Shown here: positions 1 through 52,214 of the stretch, piece by piece
How positions within the stretch are numbered: position 1 is the stretch's first letter
How the letters are laid out: each line of letters starts with the position of its first letter
Source of the DNA: a virus
Lineage: Duplodnaviria > Heunggongvirae > Uroviricota > Caudoviricetes
DNA: 53,582 nucleotides
IMG/VR virus record: IMGVR_UViG_2923318301_000003
Strand: one strand, 5' to 3'
The notes under the pieces: generated by a model
What the model saw: only the letters and a program-made list of their open reading frames with translations
What the model was told of the DNA's origin: nothing
The model's database searches: none
Position numbers and translations under genes: made by a program

Positions 1-1209
1 CTACTTTGTAGCGTTCACCAGCAAAGAAATACATGAATTATGATTAGCGTTTATATAGTCCGCATACCACTGCATCATCTCCCTACGTCCTTCCAAATAC
101 AACGCATGGTTATACGTCCCACGAATCGCATTTTTATCAACGTGAGCCAGCTGGGTTTCAATCCACGCTGTATTGAAACCTTCCTCATGCAAAATCGTAC
201 TCATCGTGTGACGGAAACCATGCCCCGTTACCCTCCCCGTATATCCAATCCGCTTAAAAACCTGATTAATACTCGCTTCACTCATCGTCTTGCGGGGATC
301 ATTACGTCCCGGGAACACCAGTGGATATTGCCCTGACATCACTTTGAGTTGCTGTACGATTTCCAGCGCTTGGGTAGAGAGGGGGACAAGGTGAGGCCGT
401 TTCATCTTCATACGCTCGGCAGGTATCTCCCACACCGCTTTTTCAAGATCAAACTCACTCCAGAAAGCACCTCGGAGTTCGCCAGTGCGAACTCCCGTGA
501 GGATCAGCAGACGTGCCGCAAGAACAACTAACGGGCTTCCTGTGTAGCCTGCGAGAGCTTTAAAAAAGTCTGGTAACTCCTCAACAGTAAGGAAGGGATA
601 ATGCTTCGATTCATGCCCTGACATCGCGCTGGTAAGATCCGCTGCAGGATTGTATTCCGCACGACCGGTTACGATGGCGTAACGAAAGACTTCGCTGCAA
701 CGCTGGCGAACCTTCTTGGCCTTCTCTGTCGCGCCACGGCTTTCAATTCGACGCAGCACATTAAGCAGAACCAGCGGTTTGATTTCATTCACCGGTTGTT
801 GGCCAATATAGGGAAAAATATCTTTATTAAAGGCTTCGATAATGTCCGAGGCATAACCTTCTGACCATCGGCTCACCTTCGTTCCATGCCATTCAAGTGC
901 CACAGCCTGAAACGTATTATTTAGCTGCACATCTCGAACCAGCTTTTCTTCTTTCTTGGCAAGCGATGGATCGATACCTTCGGCAAGCTTTTTCTTGGCG
1001 TCGTCACGCAGTGCCCTCGCTTGTGCAAGGGACACTGCCGGATAGACACCAAAGGCCATACGCTTCTCTTTTCCATTGAAGCGATATTTCATCCGCCAGT
1101 ATCTGGAACCAGAGGGAACAACCTCAAGATACAAACCAGCACCATCTGCCAGCTTATAGGCTTTCTCTCTGGGTTTAGCTGCGTCTACCTGTCGCGCATT
1201 AAGTTTCAT
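1..1209 (-). CDS. P4-type tyrosine integrase of a second thrW-associated island that continues left of the window
   Basis: 415-aa ORF (likely start at MKLNARQ). C-terminal HGFRHT...LAH...Y motifs typical of tyrosine recombinases, with a P4/CP4-like N-terminus. Start faces the tRNA-Thr 3' repeat at 1371..1418; stop codon is at 1..3. Confidence 0.85.
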   Translation of the reverse strand: MKLNARQVDAAKPREKAYKLADGAGLYLEVVPSGSRYWRMKYRFNGKEKRMAFGVYPAVSLAQARALRDDAKKKLAEGIDPSLAKKEEKLVRDVQLNNTFQAVALEWHGTKVSRWSEGYASDIIEAFNKDIFPYIGQQPVNEIKPLVLLNVLRRIESRGATEKAKKVRQRCSEVFRYAIVTGRAEYNPAADLTSAMSGHESKHYPFLTVEELPDFFKALAGYTGSPLVVLAARLLILTGVRTGELRGAFWSEFDLEKAVWEIPAERMKMKRPHLVPLSTQALEIVQQLKVMSGQYPLVFPGRNDPRKTMSEASINQVFKRIGYTGRVTGHGFRHTMSTILHEEGFNTAWIETQLAHVDKNAIRGTYNHALYLEGRREMMQWYADYINANHNSCISLLVNATK

Positions 1210-1370: not shown

Positions 1371-1418
1371 AATGGTGCCGATAATAGGAGTCGAACCTAC
1401 GACCTTCGCATTACGAAT
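1371..1418. repeat. 48-bp direct repeat identical to the 3' end of tRNA-Thr (distal att core copy)
   Basis: aatggtgccgataataggagtcgaacctacgaccttcgcattacgaat is identical to 52137..52184; the two copies diverge immediately afterwards. Confidence 0.85.
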
Positions 1419-2165
1419 TATAAGAATCCGCTTCTAATTCAAAGTATTACCCCATCAACACTGTGCTCACACGTCCCACCACATCAAAACATGTAAAGCC
1501 TTGCAAGCCATTGTGAGGCCTTATGTGTCTCAGTTTTGTCCCACCTTGTATTATGACTTGCATAGCCAATGAAGATAAACGTGACGACAAACAGCGCAGC
1601 AGTCTTCTTTTCTTTCACACTTTCCCCAATCAGCATACATACTTTCTACCATAACTGTAGTGAATGTCTGTTATGAGCGAGCAAAAGAGATTCAATTACC
1701 GGGGAATTACTCCGACATAAGCTCTCCCAGAAACACCGGAACAGCGATTCGCATATTCTCTTCTATACTTTCAGTCTGACCGGCTGGAGATTTCATAGCA
1801 AGAAAATGGATGCGCCAAGACCTATGCGGGAAAGAGGCTGAGGAAATAATTGCCGATAGCACTGTGCCCGACGAAAAGTTAATCTGGCACGCAATGACGC
1901 GCGTCCTTGGGGCATCAGGAATCAGAGAGCCAACTTAACAACCCATTACATATTATTTAACCGGACTGTTACATGTACAAAGTTCAATGATTAGTGATTC
2001 TGTGACGCCACATACAACCTAAGCCCCTGATATAAAACCAGTCTATGCAACACCTAAAAATCATATATGATAGGGTGATAAGTCAACGCGCAGTATAAAA
2101 ATTAAGCTAAAAAATGCTTTCAGCATAGTGAATCTATTTCACACTACATAATTAAGGATGAAAAA

Positions 2166-3011
2166 ATGACTGCACCAGTAATTAGTTTTATCAATATGAA
2201 AGGTGGGGTTGGTAAAACAACTTTATGCGTTGGGATTGCTGAGTTTTTAGCCAACCATATGGGGCGCAAGGTTCTAGTTATCGATATTGATCCTCAATTT
2301 AATGCCACTCAGTCCTTAATGGGGCATTATGATCGAGTAGAAGAATATATGACTGCCCTTCGCCCTAATAATCAAACCATTCGAAAGATTTTTGAGCTTC
2401 CAAATTCATTAATGGAAGATGAAAAGAAAGTGACACCAGAACAGGTCATTACTAAAGTTTCAGACAATCTTGATATTATCTTAGGTGATATAAACATTAT
2501 CTTTGATACTAACCAAGAGGGTATTAGAATAAAAATGTTGCGTAAATTCATCACCGAAAATGACTTAAAAGAAAGTTACGACTATATCTTTATCGATAGC
2601 CCCCCAACAATCTCATTATTTACAGATACCGCACTCCTTGCTTCTGATTATTATCTTACTCCGGTTAAAATTGATCACTACTCGGTGCTTGGAGCAAGCA
2701 GTTTAAATAGCGTTATAAGAAATATGCGCACACATCATGAGAAAGAAATCAAGCAAGTCGGTTACATTTATACAAACACTGATGCTGAAATGACCAATAA
2801 AACAAGGGAAATTAAAGAACAATTCGAAAACCATACTCAATTTACAAATTTTTATTTCTTTGAAAATCAATTAACCTACGTGCGTGATTTAATGGTAGGT
2901 TATCAAGGAAATATTCCTTCTTGTTATTCAAAGTCACGCCAAGATATAGAAAAGATCTGTAACGAATTTATTAACAGAGTGGCTCACTTGGAAGGTAACA
3001 CAAATGAATAA
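2166..3011 (+). CDS. ParA/MinD-family deviant Walker-A ATPase, first gene of a three-gene operon
   Basis: N-terminal MKGGVGKTT (KGGxGKT deviant Walker A); 281 aa; AT-rich; 8-nt overlap with the next gene. Confidence 0.8.
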   Translation: MTAPVISFINMKGGVGKTTLCVGIAEFLANHMGRKVLVIDIDPQFNATQSLMGHYDRVEEYMTALRPNNQTIRKIFELPNSLMEDEKKVTPEQVITKVSDNLDIILGDINIIFDTNQEGIRIKMLRKFITENDLKESYDYIFIDSPPTISLFTDTALLASDYYLTPVKIDHYSVLGASSLNSVIRNMRTHHEKEIKQVGYIYTNTDAEMTNKTREIKEQFENHTQFTNFYFFENQLTYVRDLMVGYQGNIPSCYSKSRQDIEKICNEFINRVAHLEGNTNE

Positions 3012-3402
3012 ACAATTAATTAAAGCGCTCAATAAAGCTAATAATATGCCCATGACCAAAGAAAACTTCTTAGGCTTGGTAATTATGTTGATTCTTTCAA
3101 AAGAGGTTTTTAGATCAAATTTTGATGTTAGTAAATTTATTAACAAAACCTTCAAAATATCTTTTTTGAATTATGCTGTACGGTCAAGAACTTTGATGTG
3201 CGCTAAAATTTGCAGACATATTAATGAATTAAGTGAGAATGACATAAAGATGGCTTATACGCATTTCTTAAACAACATTAACACATTAGACATTATTTTT
3301 AATGATGCAAATAAAACAAGCCAAAAATCCACATCTAAAAGCAAGCATGCTATAAGGAATTTAAATATTTGGATTAATGCAAATAAAAAGGAAGAAGAAT
3401 AA
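3004..3402 (+). CDS. Hypothetical protein, operon partner of the ParA-like ATPase
   Basis: 132-aa ORF overlapping the upstream stop; its stop overlaps the next start (ATGA at 3402). No recognisable motif. Confidence 0.6.
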   Translation: MNKQLIKALNKANNMPMTKENFLGLVIMLILSKEVFRSNFDVSKFINKTFKISFLNYAVRSRTLMCAKICRHINELSENDIKMAYTHFLNNINTLDIIFNDANKTSQKSTSKSKHAIRNLNIWINANKKEEE

Positions 3403-4067
3403 TGCTCACGCAGGATCCCTTCAACATTGGAAGAGATGTAAATTATTTTAGAGCGGAGGTGCAAAAGCACCTCAGAACCACTGATGAAATAAACAAATCA
3501 GTATCAATATTTAGGCAAATAAGTCTTTGTAATACAATTTTAAGTCACAATCCTAATCTAAATCACTCTTCTTATATAAAAGGTTTTATATATGATACCT
3601 TAAACTCCTTAATTGCCATTATAAAAAAAAGAGAACGGTATCTCCAACTGAACTTCCGCTCAATGGTGGAGCATGTGGCCAGAATAAGCCTCAATAAGAA
3701 CTACAATGGTGGGGATTTTGACCAAACTGTACGTCGTAGAGACTTTGACTTCTTAAAAGCCCAACAAGTCGATGAAGGCTGGTCTTATTTACATAATGTC
3801 TATATCAACGCCTGTTATTATGTTCACTCCTCCCCCCAAGCGAACCTAAATGTTACATCAACATTTATATCACTTATGGAGGGAGATTGTAATTCAACAC
3901 AGCATAAAATGGTGAAAAAACTTCATGAGGTAGTATCGGCGCTGATGAGAATCATTATAAAGTATTATCATCAGCATATCTCAAACATTTTCTTTAGAAA
4001 CAAAAAGGATTTAGAGAAAATAATGGGAAAAAGCCTTTATTCATATTATACCAGCTTAGACAATTAA
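3402..4067 (+). CDS. Hypothetical protein, third gene of the ParA-like operon
   Basis: 221-aa ORF translationally coupled to the upstream gene; contains R-x4/5-H spacings (RAEVQKH, RSMVEH), which are not diagnostic. Confidence 0.6.
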   Translation: MLTQDPFNIGRDVNYFRAEVQKHLRTTDEINKSVSIFRQISLCNTILSHNPNLNHSSYIKGFIYDTLNSLIAIIKKRERYLQLNFRSMVEHVARISLNKNYNGGDFDQTVRRRDFDFLKAQQVDEGWSYLHNVYINACYYVHSSPQANLNVTSTFISLMEGDCNSTQHKMVKKLHEVVSALMRIIIKYYHQHISNIFFRNKKDLEKIMGKSLYSYYTSLDN

Positions 4068-4862
4068 TTCTCTCATATTCATTGCGTAGAGCATAAATAT
4101 CTATCTAACCACCTAAAATGCCAGAAAATCTAGTTGTATACCGGTGCGAAAATATCTCGCGTTTCATCTGCCACTGCTGCTGAATGCCCTGCCCAGCGAA
4201 ACAGAGTGTTTCCTTCCCGTCTTTTGCATTGAGGTGCTCCAGCACGCTCATTAACTTTTCGCTCCCAGGACCCAGCGCGTTATCGTCGAATAGGTTAGGG
4301 CATGCTCTGACTGAAGAAGTCCCCCAGCATTACCCCGGCTTTCTGATATCGGTGTCCGTCTTTCCATATTGCATCCAGACTCCCCGTTGCTACTGCAATG
4401 ATATCCCGACTGTCCTGTGTCGGGATGAGCAGCTTCACCGACGCGCTGTTACAGTAGTACGACTCGTTCAACGCAAAGGGTATCGTGTAAAACCGATGAT
4501 GACACTGCCGGCAATCAGCACTGACGTCAGCAAACGTGAGAAAGAACAGATAAGCCGAACGATTTAGGAAATGTTTGAAGAGACTGATATGTGGATGGTT
4601 TCAGTTTAAACGCCTTGAACCGTCATATTACCTAAGTACAATCCGCTGTGACTGGCAATCATTCAATACTTGCACTATCAAAAGTGCATCAGCCAACCGC
4701 AGCACGTCTTGCATACGACCTGTCTGCGGTTTCAATCACCTCTCACCACCAGTCCCATCAATAATAATTAAACAGCGCCTAAACAAAATAAATAACAACA
4801 AGTCAACAACCTCGACAGGATGCCGATGGGATGTAAGCGACTCATCAGAACCGTATTGATAT

Positions 4863-6434
4863 TTACTGAGAGCTCAGATCAACTTTCCAGGGCAACAGAT
4901 CGCGTACCCGGTTTGCCGGCCAGTCCTGGATATGTTCAATGACGTAACGCAGCCACTTTTCTGGCTCCACATTGTTCAGACGGCATGTGCCGATCAGCGA
5001 GTACAACACCGCCGCATGTTCACCACCGCTGTCGGAACCCGCGAACATCCAGTTTTTCCGGCCTACGGCCACTCCCCGTAAGGCGTTCTCTGCGATGTTG
5101 TTGTCGATTTCCACCCAGCCATTACTGCAGTACACGTTCAGTGCATCCCACTGTTTCAGCAGGTATGCGAACGCTTTTGCCGTATCTGAGTGACGCGACA
5201 GTGTTTTCATCTGTTGCTGTATCCAGTCATACAGTGACTGCATCAGTGGCGCGGCTCTGGCTTTTCTTGCCGCCAGACGCTGTTCTGCTGAACAGCCCCG
5301 GACCTCTGCCTCGATGGCATACAGTTCACCGATACGCTGCAGGGCTTCCGTGGTGATGTAGGTGGGCGCTCTTGCATGCACATCGTGGATTTTTCTCCGG
5401 GCATGAGCCATACACGCGGCTTCCGTTATTCTGCCGGATTCGTATAACGCCCGGTAACCACCGTAAGCATCGGCCTGAAGCACACCGCTGTAACCGGCCA
5501 GGTAATTTTGTGGATGGATACCTTTCCGGTCCGGACTGTACGCGAACCAGACCGCCGGGGGCATCTGTGAACCGGCGTTACGGTCATCACGGACGTAGAC
5601 CCACAGCCGGGCTGTCCGGGTTTTACCGCTGCCCGGCTCCTGGACCGGGACGGGGATATCATCAGCATGGACTTTACCGGGCATCAGCACATACTGGCGC
5701 AGGACGTCATACAGCGGCTCCAGCAGTTCAGCAACAGCACCTGTCCAGCGCCCCAGTGTGGCACGGCTCAGCTCCACTCCCTGACGACGGTATATTTCTG
5801 ACTGGCGGTATAACGGCAGATGGTCTGCATATTTCCCGGTGACAACATGGGCCAGAAGCCCCGCTCCGGCATAACTGCGTGCAATGGGTTTTGAAGGTAC
5901 TGGTGCCTGCACGATATGGTCGCACCGGCAACAGGCCTGTTTCGGACGTTGTGTTTCGATAACCTTAAAGGCGCTGCTGATAAGCTCCAGTTGCTCTGAC
6001 ACATCACATCCCAGAGAACTGAGTTCACCACCACAGGCAGGACAGCATTCCTCTTCCGGCCGGATAACCCGGGTTTCACGGGGAAGTGAGGCCGGTAACG
6101 GTTTACGGGCTGAAGACTGGCGCAGGGCGGATGGCAGTACCGGGTCATATTGCTCACCCAGCGTTTCCGCCATTTCTTCCTGAAGTGCGCTGATTCGCTC
6201 CTGTGCTTCCTGTATCTGCCGTTCGGTTTTTGCACGAAGTTTTTCTGAGCTTTTACCGAACTGCATACGTTGCAGTTTCGCAACCAGCGCCTTCAGCCGG
6301 TTGATTTCGGAAGCATAAGCCGCCACCCGCTGTGAGAGCAGGCGGTTGTATTCAGCCATCTGGCGGATGGTGTCCTGTTGCGTCTGCAACAGTGCCCGCA
6401 GGCGGGCGTTCTCATGAGCAAGTGAGGTGTCCAT
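4863..6434 (-). CDS. IS66-family transposase TnpC
   Basis: 523-aa ORF with N-terminal coiled-coil/leucine-zipper, a Cys-rich zinc-finger-like segment (CPACGG...CCRCD) and a DDE-type core; typical IS66 TnpC layout. Confidence 0.85.
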
Positions 6435-6453
6435 ATCCTCACTTTACAACGGG

Positions 6454-6801
6454 TTATATGCGGATTCCAGCGCGTTCCGTTCGTTTCGGGTGCTTCCAGT
6501 TGATACCTTCAAGAAGCATGGATAACTGAGCCGGAGTAAGGTGCACCTTGCCGTCACGGGTGACTGGCCAGACGAAGCGGCCCCGCTCCAGGCGTTTGGT
6601 GAAGAGGCACAGTCCGTCACTGTCAGCCCACAACACTTTTATCTGGTCACCCCGGCGTCCGCGGAAGATGAACAGGTGTCCGGAGAACGGGTCATCCTTC
6701 AGGACGTTCTGAACTTTTGATGCCAGGCCGTTAAAGCCATTTCGCATATCGGTGATACCTGCAACCAGCCAGATACGCGAACCTGCAGGGAGAGATATCA
6801 T
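6454..6801 (-). CDS. IS66-family TnpB (Orf2) accessory protein
   Basis: 115-aa ORF between orfA and tnpC with the conserved IS66 Orf2 character (WLVAGITDMRNGFNGLA...). Confidence 0.8.
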   Translation of the reverse strand: MISLPAGSRIWLVAGITDMRNGFNGLASKVQNVLKDDPFSGHLFIFRGRRGDQIKVLWADSDGLCLFTKRLERGRFVWPVTRDGKVHLTPAQLSMLLEGINWKHPKRTERAGIRI

Positions 6802-7478
6802 CAGTGGCTGCTCCCTTTTATTTCGCGGATAAGTGTCTGTAATAACGCCGGCGTCAGTTTACCTTTAAGCCTGAGAGTTCCGGCCGGCAGAACCAGCTCA
6901 CAACACAGACTGTCGGACGGTGTATTTATCTGCTCTGGTTCCTGTGCGGGGGCCGGGATTTTATTATCCGGCTCCGGCGTTAACGTCACGGGAAGCAGTG
7001 CCGGCATATTTTTTCCGGAAGGCAGCAGGCCACCTTTCCGGTATTGATGGCGCCAGTTGAAGAGCAGGTTATCGTTGATTCCGTTTTCCCGGGCGATCTG
7101 CGCCACACAGGCTCCGGGCTGCAGTGACTGCTCCACTAAGGCGATTTTAAACTCATAAGGGAAGTTGGGCCGCCGGGGACGTTTTTTTACCACGGGGGCT
7201 TCGGATATAACGGTGCTTTCAGGACGTACGACTGGTACCGTGGAAAATTGTCCGTAAAGGCAGGCATCAAGTTCCTGCTCCGACATGCCTGCGGGCAAAG
7301 GCCACGAAAGGCCAGCTCTCCGAAAGCGCACGAACATACTACAAACTGTTGATTTTGGTACACCCAGGCGACGCCCGGCCACAACCCGGGGTAAATGTTC
7401 TTCAAAGTGAAGACGTAAAGCTTCAGTGATCCAGGTCCGGTGTTTCATACGATAGTGTCCATTAAAAATGATGGACAT
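6801..7478 (-). CDS. IS66-family OrfA (Orf1)
   Basis: 225-aa ORF whose stop overlaps the tnpB start. HTH-like N-terminus. True start may be the internal Met (MKHRTW). Confidence 0.7.
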   Translation of the reverse strand: MSIIFNGHYRMKHRTWITEALRLHFEEHLPRVVAGRRLGVPKSTVCSMFVRFRRAGLSWPLPAGMSEQELDACLYGQFSTVPVVRPESTVISEAPVVKKRPRRPNFPYEFKIALVEQSLQPGACVAQIARENGINDNLLFNWRHQYRKGGLLPSGKNMPALLPVTLTPEPDNKIPAPAQEPEQINTPSDSLCCELVLPAGTLRLKGKLTPALLQTLIREIKGSSH

Positions 7479-7644
7479 TATTTTTGTAGAGCCGGAGGAA
7501 ACAGACCAGACGGTTTAAATGAGCCGGTTACGATGGGATGATGAAGAGATAAGAAAGAATAACTAGTAAAGCCCTAAAACGTCAGCGTTCAGACGCGTTT
7601 TTTACTTAACCGGTAACAAATACGTTGTATCATAGCAACATAAA

Positions 7645-9594
7645 ATGATTGTTCTAAATCAGATTAACTCCTCACTTTTGTACAATGTCGCTTACAGGTA
7701 TACCATGAAATCCGAGACGCTAACTGTCCAACAACTTTTTCAAGACCGCCGACAATACTGTGTTCCATTCTATCAACGTGCCTATGTATGGACTCAGCGA
7801 AACCAATGGTCAGCTCTACTGGAGGATATCCTAGAGAAAGCACAATCCCGGCTCTCGGGTACAAAACCAACTCCCCATTTCCTTGGTGCAGTGGTACTGG
7901 AACCTCAACCAAAAAAAGGATTATTCGGTGTAGATTCCATACATATTATTGATGGTCAGCAACGATTGACCACTCTTCAATATGTTCTGGCATCCATCCG
8001 ATTAGCATTACGTGCGACAGATCTTTCCAACTTAGAGCCTCTCATTTCGTCTTGCCTGAAAAACTCAAACGAAGACACAATGCGAAATAAAGAAGTAGAG
8101 CGCTTCAAACTGTGGCCAACTTTTCGGGATCAAACTCATTTTATTCAAAGTTTTAATGTTGAAAATATTGACGATATCCGGAATGTATTCTCTGATAGTT
8201 TCACGCAGCATGGTACGTTGCGTAAGCATTTTAATCACCCGCCATCACTAGAAGCATTATGTTTTTTTACTGAAGCCTTTATAAAGTGGATTAAAATAGA
8301 AAATCACTCACCACGAGAAAATGCTGTAGCATTAATTGAGGCTGTCTTGACGGATCTGAAACTAGTAAGCATATTTCTCGAGGCTGAAGATGACGCTCAA
8401 ATAATTTTTGAAACATTAAATGGCAGAGGTGCGGAACTTCATGCCACAGATCTTATTCGCAATTATATTTTTATGTGCGCTGAACATGAAAATATTAATG
8501 CTGTTGAATTATATGAGAATGAGTGGAAGATCTTTGAAGATACGTACTGGTCAGAAAGACAACGTCGTGGTCGTATTAATAAACCACGCATGGAGTGGCT
8601 AGTGCATGCAACATTGCAATCAGAAAGGCAACGTGAAATCGATCTGTCTCGTCTTTACAATGAGTATCGTGATTATGTAAGTAAGGACTTGCCTTCACAA
8701 CGAGCAGATCTGCAAGTAAAGCGCCTCAAACAATATGCATCACAATATAAAGAATTGGTTGGTGGTTTTGGCACAACCCCCATCTCACACTTTGGACATC
8801 GCATCGCAGCCTATGATGTGACGACACTTTATCCGCTTGCTTTGTTCATTTCGATAGCTAACATCGCCGATGATGAGAAAGCAGCCATGTATAATGATCT
8901 TGTCTCCTACGTAGTACGAAGAGCCGTATGTGGCCTGACGCCAAAGAATTACAACAATGTATTTATGAATGTATTGCGGCACTTGTCTAAAACAGAAATT
9001 TCCAGTGTTGAGTTACGTAATATCCTCAATAGCTTAAATGGCGAAGCCTCACGTTGGCCTGGGGACTCAGAATTTCTCAACGCTTGCATCAATGCTCCAC
9101 TTTATCCTGGCAGGCTCGACGCACCGAAAATGCGCTCAATGTTAACGGAACTTGAAAGAGAACTTTGTCGCCAAGTGAAGACAGAGAAGCCTGATGTTCC
9201 AAATCTTTCTAACCTCGATATCGATCATCTTATGCCTCAAAGTTGGTATTCCTGTTGGCCTCTCGAAAATGGTCATATGGTGACAAATTCAGATGCTACG
9301 GTATTGAACCAAATTGTTCTGTCTGGAACCGATCTTACCCCAGAACAGCTACTGGTAAGGAAACGGCAACAAGCGATAGCTACGTTGGGAAATCTAACTT
9401 TGCTTAACCTTAGCGTAAACCGTTCTGTTCAGAATGCTGTATTTCTGAAAAAACGTGATGCTCTCATCGTCCACACCAATCTACGACTGAACATTCCACT
9501 TATAGTTAAGGATAAATGGGATGAGGATGAAATCCTGGAGCGGGGTAAAAAGTTGGGGGAAATTGCATTGAAAGTATGGCCAAAACACGATTAA
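7645..9594 (+). CDS. Fused DUF262/DUF1524 protein, GmrSD-family type IV (modification-dependent) restriction endonuclease-like
   Basis: N-terminal ParB-like/DUF262 hallmark (IIDGQQRLTTLQ) and C-terminal His-Me finger/DUF1524-like motif (DIDHLMPQSW); 649 aa. Alternative start at 7705. Confidence 0.75.
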   Translation: MIVLNQINSSLLYNVAYRYTMKSETLTVQQLFQDRRQYCVPFYQRAYVWTQRNQWSALLEDILEKAQSRLSGTKPTPHFLGAVVLEPQPKKGLFGVDSIHIIDGQQRLTTLQYVLASIRLALRATDLSNLEPLISSCLKNSNEDTMRNKEVERFKLWPTFRDQTHFIQSFNVENIDDIRNVFSDSFTQHGTLRKHFNHPPSLEALCFFTEAFIKWIKIENHSPRENAVALIEAVLTDLKLVSIFLEAEDDAQIIFETLNGRGAELHATDLIRNYIFMCAEHENINAVELYENEWKIFEDTYWSERQRRGRINKPRMEWLVHATLQSERQREIDLSRLYNEYRDYVSKDLPSQRADLQVKRLKQYASQYKELVGGFGTTPISHFGHRIAAYDVTTLYPLALFISIANIADDEKAAMYNDLVSYVVRRAVCGLTPKNYNNVFMNVLRHLSKTEISSVELRNILNSLNGEASRWPGDSEFLNACINAPLYPGRLDAPKMRSMLTELERELCRQVKTEKPDVPNLSNLDIDHLMPQSWYSCWPLENGHMVTNSDATVLNQIVLSGTDLTPEQLLVRKRQQAIATLGNLTLLNLSVNRSVQNAVFLKKRDALIVHTNLRLNIPLIVKDKWDEDEILERGKKLGEIALKVWPKHD

Positions 9595-9640: not shown

Positions 9641-9989
9641 TACTCACTATTAAATCCTTTAATTTGCAACAAGAACAGCAGTGTCAGCCCTAGGTTTCGG
9701 ACTTTGTACCGCTTATCTTGTCTTCAAAAATCAGCTCGCATCCTGCACAGTTCAGCGCATTACGAATCTGTAGCACCAATCTTAACTATCTGTTTTAGCA
9801 AGCATTAACCGCATTCACTAAGCTATAGTTGATGGCACAAACAGAAAGTTGATGCATGATGTTGTCATGTGTATGTCACAAATGCGGCACAACGATCTTC
9901 AAACATGTAGCCACACATCCACAGAAGAGCACAAAGCCTTGCAATCCAGTGCAACGCTTTGTGTACCATAGTTTTTCCTTATCAACTAC

Positions 9990-50734: not shown

Positions 50735-51084
50735 TGGAGCCATACAGCCTCACACTCGATGAGGCCTGTCATTTTCTCAAGATATCCAGACCGACTGCCA
50801 TTAACTGGATACGCACAGGGCGTCTTCAGGCAACACGCAAAGATCCCACTAAGAATAAATCTCCTTACCTCACAACACGACAAGCCTGCATTGCGGCTCT
50901 TCAGTCTCCGCTGCATACTGTCCAGGTGAGCGCGGGTGATGGCATAACAGAGGAAAGAAAATGTCACTCTTCCGCAGAGGTGAAATATGGTACGCCAGTT
51001 TCACATTGCCGAACGGTAAAAGATTTAAACAGTCTCTTGGAACAAAGGACAAAAGGCAGGCGACAGAACTCCATGACAAGCTAA
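50734..51084 (+). CDS. Excisionase-like HTH protein (3' boundary uncertain; overlaps the integrase start)
   Basis: The N-terminus [30 protein letters not shown] is a typical excisionase/AlpA-type HTH; the open frame runs ~120 nt into the integrase gene. Confidence 0.55.
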
Positions 51085-52124
51085 AGGCTGAAGCATGGCG
51101 GGTCAGCAAACTTGGTGAAATACCTGATATAACGTTCGAGGAAGCGTGTGTCAGGTGGCTTGAAGAGAAAGCACATAAAAAATCACTGGACGATGACAAA
51201 AGCCGGATCGGATTCTGGCTTCAACATTTCGCAGGAATGCAACTAAGAGACATTACTGAATCAAAAATTTATTCAGCAATGCAGAAAATGACGAACCGGC
51301 GTCATGAGGAAAACTGGAAACTCAGGGCAGAAGCATGCAGAAAAAAAGGGAAACCTGTTCCAGAATACACGCCAAAACCAGCGTCCGTTGCAACGAAGGC
51401 TACGCATCTTTCATTTATAAAGGCCCTACTAAGAGCCGCAGAGCGTGAATGGAAAATGCTGGATAAGGCACCAATTATTAAAGTGCCCCAACCAAAGAAT
51501 AAACGGATCCGCTGGCTGGAGCCCCATGAAGCACAAAGGCTGATTGATGAATGTCCGGAGCCATTAAAGTCTGTTGTTGAATTTGCACTGGCAACAGGCC
51601 TAAGACGCTCGAACATCATCAACCTTGAATGGCAACAAATAGATATGCAGCGCCGGGTGGCATGGATAAACCCGGAAGAGAGTAAATCAAACCGCGCAAT
51701 TGGCGTTGCGCTGAATGATACTGCATGTCGCGTATTGAAAAAACAAATCGGGAATCATCACCGTTGGGTATTTGTGTACAAGGAAAGCTGTACCAAACCA
51801 GACGGAACGAAAGCGCCAACAGTCAGGAAGATGCGGTATGACGCAAACACAGCCTGGAAAGCAGCGCTGAGACGGGCTGGTATTGATGATTTCAGATTTC
51901 ACGACTTGAGACACACCTGGGCAAGTTGGCTGGTTCAAGCCGGAGTCCCGTTGTCAGTGTTACAGGAAATGGGAGGCTGGGAGTCTATCGAAATGGTTCG
52001 TCGATATGCTCACCTTGCACCTAATCACCTTACCGAACACGCACGGCAAATAGACTCGATCCTGAACCCATCGGTCCCAAATTTGTCCCAGTCAAAAAAT
52101 AAGGAAGGTACTAATGATGTGTAA
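50961..52124 (+). CDS. Prophage tyrosine integrase
   Basis: 387-aa ORF; C-terminal [39 protein letters not shown] catalytic region; ends 13 nt from the att core and tRNA. Confidence 0.9.
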
Positions 52125-52136
52125 CTTATTGATTTT

Positions 52137-52184
52137 AATGGTGCCGATAATAGGAGTCGAACCTACGACCTTCGCATTACGAAT
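52137..52184. repeat. att core within the intact tRNA-Thr (proximal copy of the 48-bp repeat)
   Basis: Identical to 1371..1418. Confidence 0.85.
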
Positions 52185-52214
52185 GCGCTGCTCTACCAAC
52201 TGAGCTATATCGGC
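52139..52214 (-). tRNA. thrW: tRNA-Thr (anticodon CGU)
   Basis: 76-nt cloverleaf on the - strand: GCCGATATAGCTCAGTTGGTAGAGCAGCGCATTCGTAATGCGAAGGTCGTAGGTTCGACTCCTATTATCGGCACCA; adjacent to proA as in E. coli. Confidence 0.9.

Follow-up and report, generated by a model that had tools for sequence, protein, structure and literature searches.

The window analyzed here is a stretch of 53,582 nt from a Caudoviricetes virus record (IMGVR_UViG_2923318301_000003). The last ORF of a ParA-like operon stops at 4067 and an IS66-family element begins at 4833, and the interval between them had been described in an earlier note as about 700 bp without credible genes. The following features were located in this interval and on its two sides:

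1371-1418, minus strand: copy of the 3' end of thrW (tRNA-Thr), 48 bp, integrase-distal att site
1798-1938, plus strand: 3' fragment of a gene for SRAP (SOS response-associated peptidase), a PGAP pseudogene and the first of the relics of an SOS module
2166-4131, plus strand: ParA-like operon of three genes with its 3' flank, ORFs to 4067, GC 0.33 vs 0.53 in the adjacent sequence
4105-4481, minus strand: umuC pseudogene (Pfam, NCBIfam, PGAP pseudogene)
4184-4567, plus strand: ORF of 127 aa with an ATG start, the longest of the interval
4481-4483: deletion junction, at which umuC and dinI meet with their truncated 5' ends
4483-4610, plus strand: dinI pseudogene, last 41 codons (Pfam DinI)
4575-4859: ORF of 94 aa with a TTG start, extending into the insertion sequence
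4599-4742: non-coding lambdoid element that includes the last ~3 codons of pin, with hairpins at 4671-4688 and 4695-4731
4743-4832, plus strand: left end (5' flank) of a GmrSD cassette, which resumes at 7540-7704 beyond the insertion sequence
4825-4832 and 7532-7539: left and right copies of the 8-bp target-site duplication GATGGGAT
4833-7531, minus strand: ISCro1 of the IS66 family, 2,699 bp long, in which tnpA, tnpB and a transposase gene are annotated (PGAP, identical sequence)
7705-9594: DUF262/GmrSD gene

The 48 bp at 1371-1418 were an exact direct repeat of 52137-52184, within an intact tRNA-Thr(CGU) gene (52139-52214) that is adjoined by an integrase gene (50961-52124, plus strand). Lambda-like head, tail, lysis and Q genes were also present. 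The repeat and these genes together indicated that a lambdoid prophage integrated at thrW spans approximately 1371-52214 (about 51 kb), and the interval lies 2.7-3.5 kb inside its int-distal end. Beyond the att copy, an integrase gene at 1-1209 (minus strand) marked a neighbouring second island, which in the RefSeq relatives carries HsdM and an ORC/CDC6-type ATPase further left. This island was apparently integrated in tandem with the prophage. About 47 complete E. coli chromosomes matched the whole interval at 100% identity, and the fused remnant of umuC and dinI was found at an identity of at least 99% in 51 of 5,426 complete E. coli genomes. On the identical RefSeq sequence of E. coli, PGAP annotated two pseudogenes, both lacking their N-terminal part: a "DUF4113 domain-containing protein" (minus strand), which is also frameshifted, and a "DinI family protein" (plus strand).

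To evaluate the coding potential of the interval, composition, ORFs and signals were compared. The GC content was 0.331 for the ParA operon (2166-4067), 0.328 for 4068-4131 and 0.526 for 4132-4481, so that the sharp composition change away from the AT-rich operon noticed earlier was confirmed as a step from 33 to 53% at about 4132. There was no intact gene in 4068-4832, in agreement with the earlier note. The ORFs had also been called short and without RBSs. The second part held for the two longest, as no Shine-Dalgarno-like sequence was found upstream of the 127-aa or the 94-aa ORF, while their length had been slightly understated. When every ORF of at least 30 aa was compared with Pfam, NCBIfam and PHROG, matches were obtained solely for pieces of umuC and dinI. 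The 127-aa ORF gave a single match, to a PHROG, that covered no more than the 27 C-terminal residues, where the ORF runs in the dinI frame. The 94-aa ORF had no credible family match (one NCBIfam match lay far below threshold). Both are explained by their position: most of the first lies antisense to the umuC remnant, with its end in the frame of dinI, and the second enters the insertion sequence. An intact gene with a non-standard start was likewise absent, each ORF of at least 30 aa being either a piece of umuC or dinI or a frame with neither a credible family match nor an RBS.

Moreover, the tRNA scan of the region and the Rfam scan of 3900-5000 at E<=1 returned no tRNA and no family, respectively. 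Consensus scans for promoters and terminators gave sites that were not in excess of shuffled sequences. No perfect match to the LexA-box pattern was present in the interval, in which one site with one mismatch was located inside the umuC remnant, and the count of the core pattern across the window was about that of chance. The only repeat found in 3900-5000 was an inverted pair of 13 nt, which was judged to be chance. A plasmid origin of the sequence was considered and rejected; the match in the plasmid collection was only 78 bp long and fell on the conserved hairpin element.

An intact counterpart of the remnants was found at a prophage end in E. coli GE3 (NZ_CP012376.1, 2,396,413-2,399,086), where SRAP (plus strand), umuC (minus), umuD (minus) and dinI (plus) form an SOS module that adjoins a tRNA. 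Behind dinI there are two cargo genes, pinE (minus) and then tail-fibre genes. The same SRAP-umuC-umuD-dinI module was present in Citrobacter youngae and C. werkmanii. The stop codons of SRAP and umuC overlap in GE3, and one other, unrelated gene lies between the two in XJ55. A convergent SRAP gene within 3 kb (gaps of -1 to 2,765 bp) was present in 28, and a divergent DinI gene in 14, of 80 species-representative loci that have a UmuC relative. Alignment of the GE3 locus (L007) with the window by blastn gave three blocks:

4132-4481 of the window = L007 7001-7355, 82%
4483-4600 of the window = L007 8854-8971, 87%
4599-4742 of the window = L007 10672-10821, 76%

The first block corresponds to umuC, the gene of the catalytic subunit of DNA polymerase V (Pol V, Y family). 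Only the 3' third of this gene remained, that is, the last ~126 codons, equivalent to UmuC residues ~294-422 with the little-finger end and DUF4113. The frame was shifted by a 5-bp deletion between 4296 and 4297, seen as a gap in the alignment, and the minus-strand translation across this single frameshift gave 126 residues. The repaired fragment matched Pfam DUF4113 (6e-17) and IMS_C (5e-6), and its pieces matched positions 299-354 (3e-26) and 374-419 (3.5e-17) of the 422 positions of the NCBIfam UmuC model NF002955. Homology to the UmuC family was thus present for the little-finger end and the C-terminal DUF4113. The catalytic N-terminal palm/fingers/thumb (IMS) domain was absent, residues 1-293 being gone, and no uninterrupted frame was left. 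The partner gene umuD and the LexA-boxed promoter were absent as well; both fall within a 1,498-bp deletion relative to GE3. From the loss of residues 1-293 and the frame shift, we concluded that the umuC remnant is a pseudogene and not a functional member of the family.

The repaired fragment was 77% identical in amino acids to residues 294-419 of the intact UmuC of the GE3 prophage. At the nucleotide level, the remnant was 82% identical to the GE3 prophage umuC. The closest species-representative matches to the UmuC fragment came from Citrobacter (77-79% aa), and among 185,579 species-representative genomes there was no closer intact umuC, the best being 79% aa in Citrobacter youngae, no better than GE3. 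Since the nearest intact umuC was only 82% identical in nucleotides, the direct ancestor was not found, and neither the mechanism of the deletion nor a microhomology was readable. On the left side, nucleotide homology to every umuC began only at 4122-4132, which indicated that insertion of the ParA operon replaced the last ~9 codons of umuC. On the right side, homology to every umuC relative compared ended at 4480-4481 (blastn).

Within the remnant, the stretch 4105-4251 (minus strand) could still encode a 48-aa DUF4113 peptide, which might interfere with or modulate the Pol V of the host, or else a different partner of the C-terminus of UmuC. This ORF starts with ATG, has GGGAG as a plausible Shine-Dalgarno sequence 10 nt upstream and matches DUF4113 almost end to end (6e-16), and the fragment that carries it was kept at 99% identity or more in 51 genomes. 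However, conservation at this level reflects recent common descent of one prophage lineage and not selection. In addition, the minus strand showed no promoter-like site, the ~9 codons at the 3' end of the ORF derive from sequence flanking the ParA insertion instead of umuC, and PGAP regards the region as a pseudogene. In strain MLI105 an IS2 sits 170 bp upstream of it, and other insertion sequences are scattered through the region. We therefore consider a working 48-aa peptide very unlikely. The idea that it serves the prophage as a "decoy", arisen by gene decay, that would bind a partner of the UmuC C-terminus and damp the mutagenesis by host Pol V is just as hard to credit.

The second block was assigned to dinI, of which the 3' half was left. 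The fragment matched positions 26-63 of the 63-position Pfam profile DinI (PF06183, 6e-8), so that homology to the DinI domain of this family of RecA-filament modulators was present. It was 82% identical in amino acids to residues 40-78 of GE3 DinI and 87% in nucleotides to the GE3 gene; the identity to Citrobacter phage Chris1 was 86% (nt). A complete dinI frame of ~80 codons with a start codon was absent, codons 1-39 being gone and an in-frame TAG being present. This nonsense codon at 4565-4567 replaced the CAG found in the aligned relatives, and the original stop codon TAA was located at 4608-4610, so that the remnant reaches about 43 bp past the feature drawn by PGAP. At the junction with umuC, about 1.5 kb (the equivalent of 1,498 bp) had been lost relative to GE3, comprising codons 1-293 of umuC and 1-39 of dinI along with the whole umuD and the divergent promoter/LexA-box region.

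The 127-aa ORF runs across this junction, and it might be argued that the deletion made a real chimeric gene, as it is the longest ORF of the interval and begins with ATG. But it has no Shine-Dalgarno sequence, its first 100 codons are antisense to umuC, its family match is restricted to the last 27 residues in the dinI frame, and it ends exactly at the dinI nonsense mutation. It was also broken by IS2 or IS3 in other strains and was not called by PGAP. A chimeric gene is accordingly highly improbable. Similarly, there is next to no chance that the umuC fragment is a captured piece of the host umuDC rather than phage-borne, for although chromosomal E. coli umuC does match it, the identity was ~71% (nt) vs 82% to the GE3 prophage copy, the carrier genomes retain their own umuC as a second match, and the flanking SRAP and dinI relics mirror the mobile module and not the chromosomal neighbourhood.

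The further relic of the module, SRAP, was detected on the far side of the ParA operon. Its 3' fragment was 63% identical in amino acids to residues 172-209 of GE3 SRAP (E=2e-16), and the DNA aligned too. The slot taken by the ParA operon, where SRAP and umuC converge with their 3' ends, is a variable one. The proteins of the operon were a ParA-like ATPase (phrog_164), a protein of 132 aa (phrog_6264) and a protein of 221 aa (phrog_7540, full-length match). The 132-aa and 221-aa proteins could be placed in no family of Pfam or NCBIfam, and PADLOC gave no convincing match for them.

On the right side, the third blastn block belongs to a non-coding element that usually lies 3' of the last gene of the late operon (pin or tfa). 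It was 76-88% identical in nucleotides to the pinE 3' flank of GE3, HK97, phi80 and e14-like elements. Its position was after pinE in GE3 and the e14-like elements, after tfa and beside the annotated sib site in HK97, after the invertase gene in Chris1 and after a tail-fibre gene in phi80; dinI itself lies beside invertase or tail-fibre genes in phi80 and Chris1. The fold (MFE) z-scores of the two hairpins were -4.9 and -4.1. The larger hairpin (alignment columns 75-112) was kept in the eight aligned sequences with some compensatory changes, four pairs being changed on both sides. Indels of 1 and 5 nt among the eight homologues indicated that there is no conserved reading frame in the element. 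The stem was followed by TTTCA or TTTTA on the plus strand, which is no clear U-tract, with no T-run on the minus strand; the terminator consensus scan did not call the hairpin element, and it had no Rfam match. A core of ~90 bp (4652-4742) recurs at 80-96% identity across several hundred genomes of E. coli and more than 150 phage records, HK97 and phi80 included. The element probably acts as a terminator or insulator where the late and the int/dinI transcription units converge, and the late-operon terminators known from the b region of lambda may be its counterparts. The hairpin element at 4652-4742 is likely the only part of the interval that retains a function.

Next to this element, the 5' flank of the GmrSD cassette begins. 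The GmrSD gene itself matched the PADLOC model of a type IV methyl-directed restriction enzyme over its full length with 1,439 bits, as well as Pfam GmrSD_N and GmrSD_C. The flank was 89-96% identical to that before the same GmrSD gene in the APEC O18 and A27 prophages, which have other neighbours upstream. No leftover coding sequence of pin was present in 4743-4832. Homology to pin resumed only at 9687-9764 (Pin residues 19-44), which indicated that the cassette replaced Pin codons ~45-181; with these codons replaced, the tail-fibre inversion switch of the prophage should be frozen. Different genes were observed in the slot beside the pin 3' flank, namely a HipA-family kinase with DUF3037 in GE3 (L007 9081-10636), a McrBC-like pair in the e14-like element of AMA1167 (locus L003, 1656-4729) and GmrSD in the window (7705-9594). 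The dinI-pin slot behaves like a hotspot for defence or cargo genes.

The cassette flank was in turn interrupted by ISCro1, which left about 170 bp before the start codon of GmrSD. A promoter-like site of the GmrSD gene (7606-7633, a consensus match only) lies downstream of the insertion sequence. The 8-bp duplication, imperfect terminal inverted repeats of the GTAAGCG type (GTAAGCG/GTAACCG) and three IS ORFs, all characteristic of the IS66 family, were present, and E. coli WCHEC005784 reads straight through the empty site. ISCro1 was found at this site in one complete genome only (SCEC020023). This strain carries IS903B inside the ParA gene (locus L001, 5033-6944, vs 2166-3011 in the window). 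As IS903B is missing from the window, the strain of the window is related to SCEC020023 and not identical to it. Besides ISCro1, four independent insertions were detected in the same 700 bp, in three other strains:

4422-4429: IS2 in MLI105
4512-4516: IS3 in 184/2aE
4674-4678: IS2 in WP2-S18-ESBL-08
4759-4765: ISEc62 in WP2-S18-ESBL-08

These four insertions argue for dispensable DNA, which fits an unselected sequence. With ISCro1, all five independent insertions (IS2 twice, IS3, ISEc62 and ISCro1) lay within about 400 bp (4422-4832) in four strains, and the region resembles a sink in which insertion sequences collect locally, which is what dispensable DNA would be expected to show.

Taken together, we estimate at roughly 93% the probability that the interval is dead DNA, composed of the remains of a phage-borne SOS module and of ordinary intergenic sequence of the prophage. 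The stretch 4105-4610 is predicted to be incapable of making a functional protein. The suggestion of the earlier note that this was decayed sequence or a pseudogene remnant was borne out, as the 3' ends of umuC and dinI were identified by Pfam, NCBIfam and PGAP. Its suggestion that the identity of the remnant might clarify the origin of the cargo arm proved right too: in this arm, at the att-proximal end of the lambdoid prophage, there was formerly an SOS module made up of SRAP-umuDC-dinI.

The rebuilding of the arm may be reconstructed as follows. On the int-distal att side, the ancestral arm would have carried SRAP on the plus strand, umuC and umuD on the minus strand and dinI on the plus strand, with the end of the tail-fibre/pin late operon behind them. 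A deletion of ~1.5 kb would have joined what is left of umuC (its 3' third) to what is left of dinI (its 3' half) and removed umuD together with the shared SOS-regulated promoter region. The umuC remnant would have gained its 5-bp frameshift and the dinI remnant its nonsense codon either after or before this deletion. The AT-rich ParA-like operon presumably entered the slot where SRAP and umuC converge, a GmrSD restriction cassette would have taken the place of most of pin, and ISCro1 would finally have inserted upstream of the GmrSD start codon. The order of these five events is the one that we infer.

The pseudogene status of the remnants is already part of the RefSeq annotation, and nothing mechanistically new is involved. 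The "empty" 700 bp are nevertheless explained, and no search for a hidden gene is needed. Moreover, the analysis gives a map of how the int-distal att arm was rebuilt, in which SRAP-umuDC-dinI was lost, GmrSD and the ParA-like operon came into the same slots and insertion sequences accumulated. This map is useful context for the assessment of the ParA operon or the GmrSD gene.

The closest known system is the GE3 module, which resembles the window in gene order, in orientation and in its location at the att-proximal prophage end ahead of the pin and tail-fibre genes. The identities were 82% (nt) for umuC, 87% (nt) for dinI and 63% (aa) for SRAP. Unlike GE3, the window keeps only the 3' ends, two thirds of umuC being deleted along with umuD and the promoter region, and it has the ParA operon between SRAP and umuC, whereas the HipA-family kinase/DUF3037 cargo between dinI and pin in GE3 is absent from the window. 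The neighbourhood of SRAP (DUF159) genes with the UmuC-UmuD dyad in SOS-related contexts was previously reported (Aravind, Anand and Iyer, 2013, Biol Direct 8:20, PMC3765255), and the relics in the window represent one decayed instance of it. That study treats intact operons across bacteria, and the arrangement at a prophage end and its decay are not described there.

The position of the remnants also has parallels in lambdoid phages. In phi80, the dinL-pinL region is like the window in that a dinI homologue and the conserved element lie between the tail-fibre/invertase genes and attP/int, and in HK97 the same non-coding element takes that position between tfa and sib/attP. The element of phi80 was 80% identical to 4566-4732 of the window and that of HK97 88% to 4652-4742. 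In contrast to the window, dinL is intact and LexA-boxed in phi80, pinL is intact and there is no umuC fusion, while HK97 is without dinI, umuC and the fusion. An intact umuC near the integrase end was found in five temperate phages, namely CobraSix (Enterobacter), ST846-OXA48phi9.2 (Klebsiella), PHB10 (Escherichia), Oslo (Salmonella) and ENT39118 (Cronobacter). The C-terminus of their UmuC was 64-77% identical in amino acids to the repaired fragment, and the gene that is a 3' stump in the window is of full length in all five.
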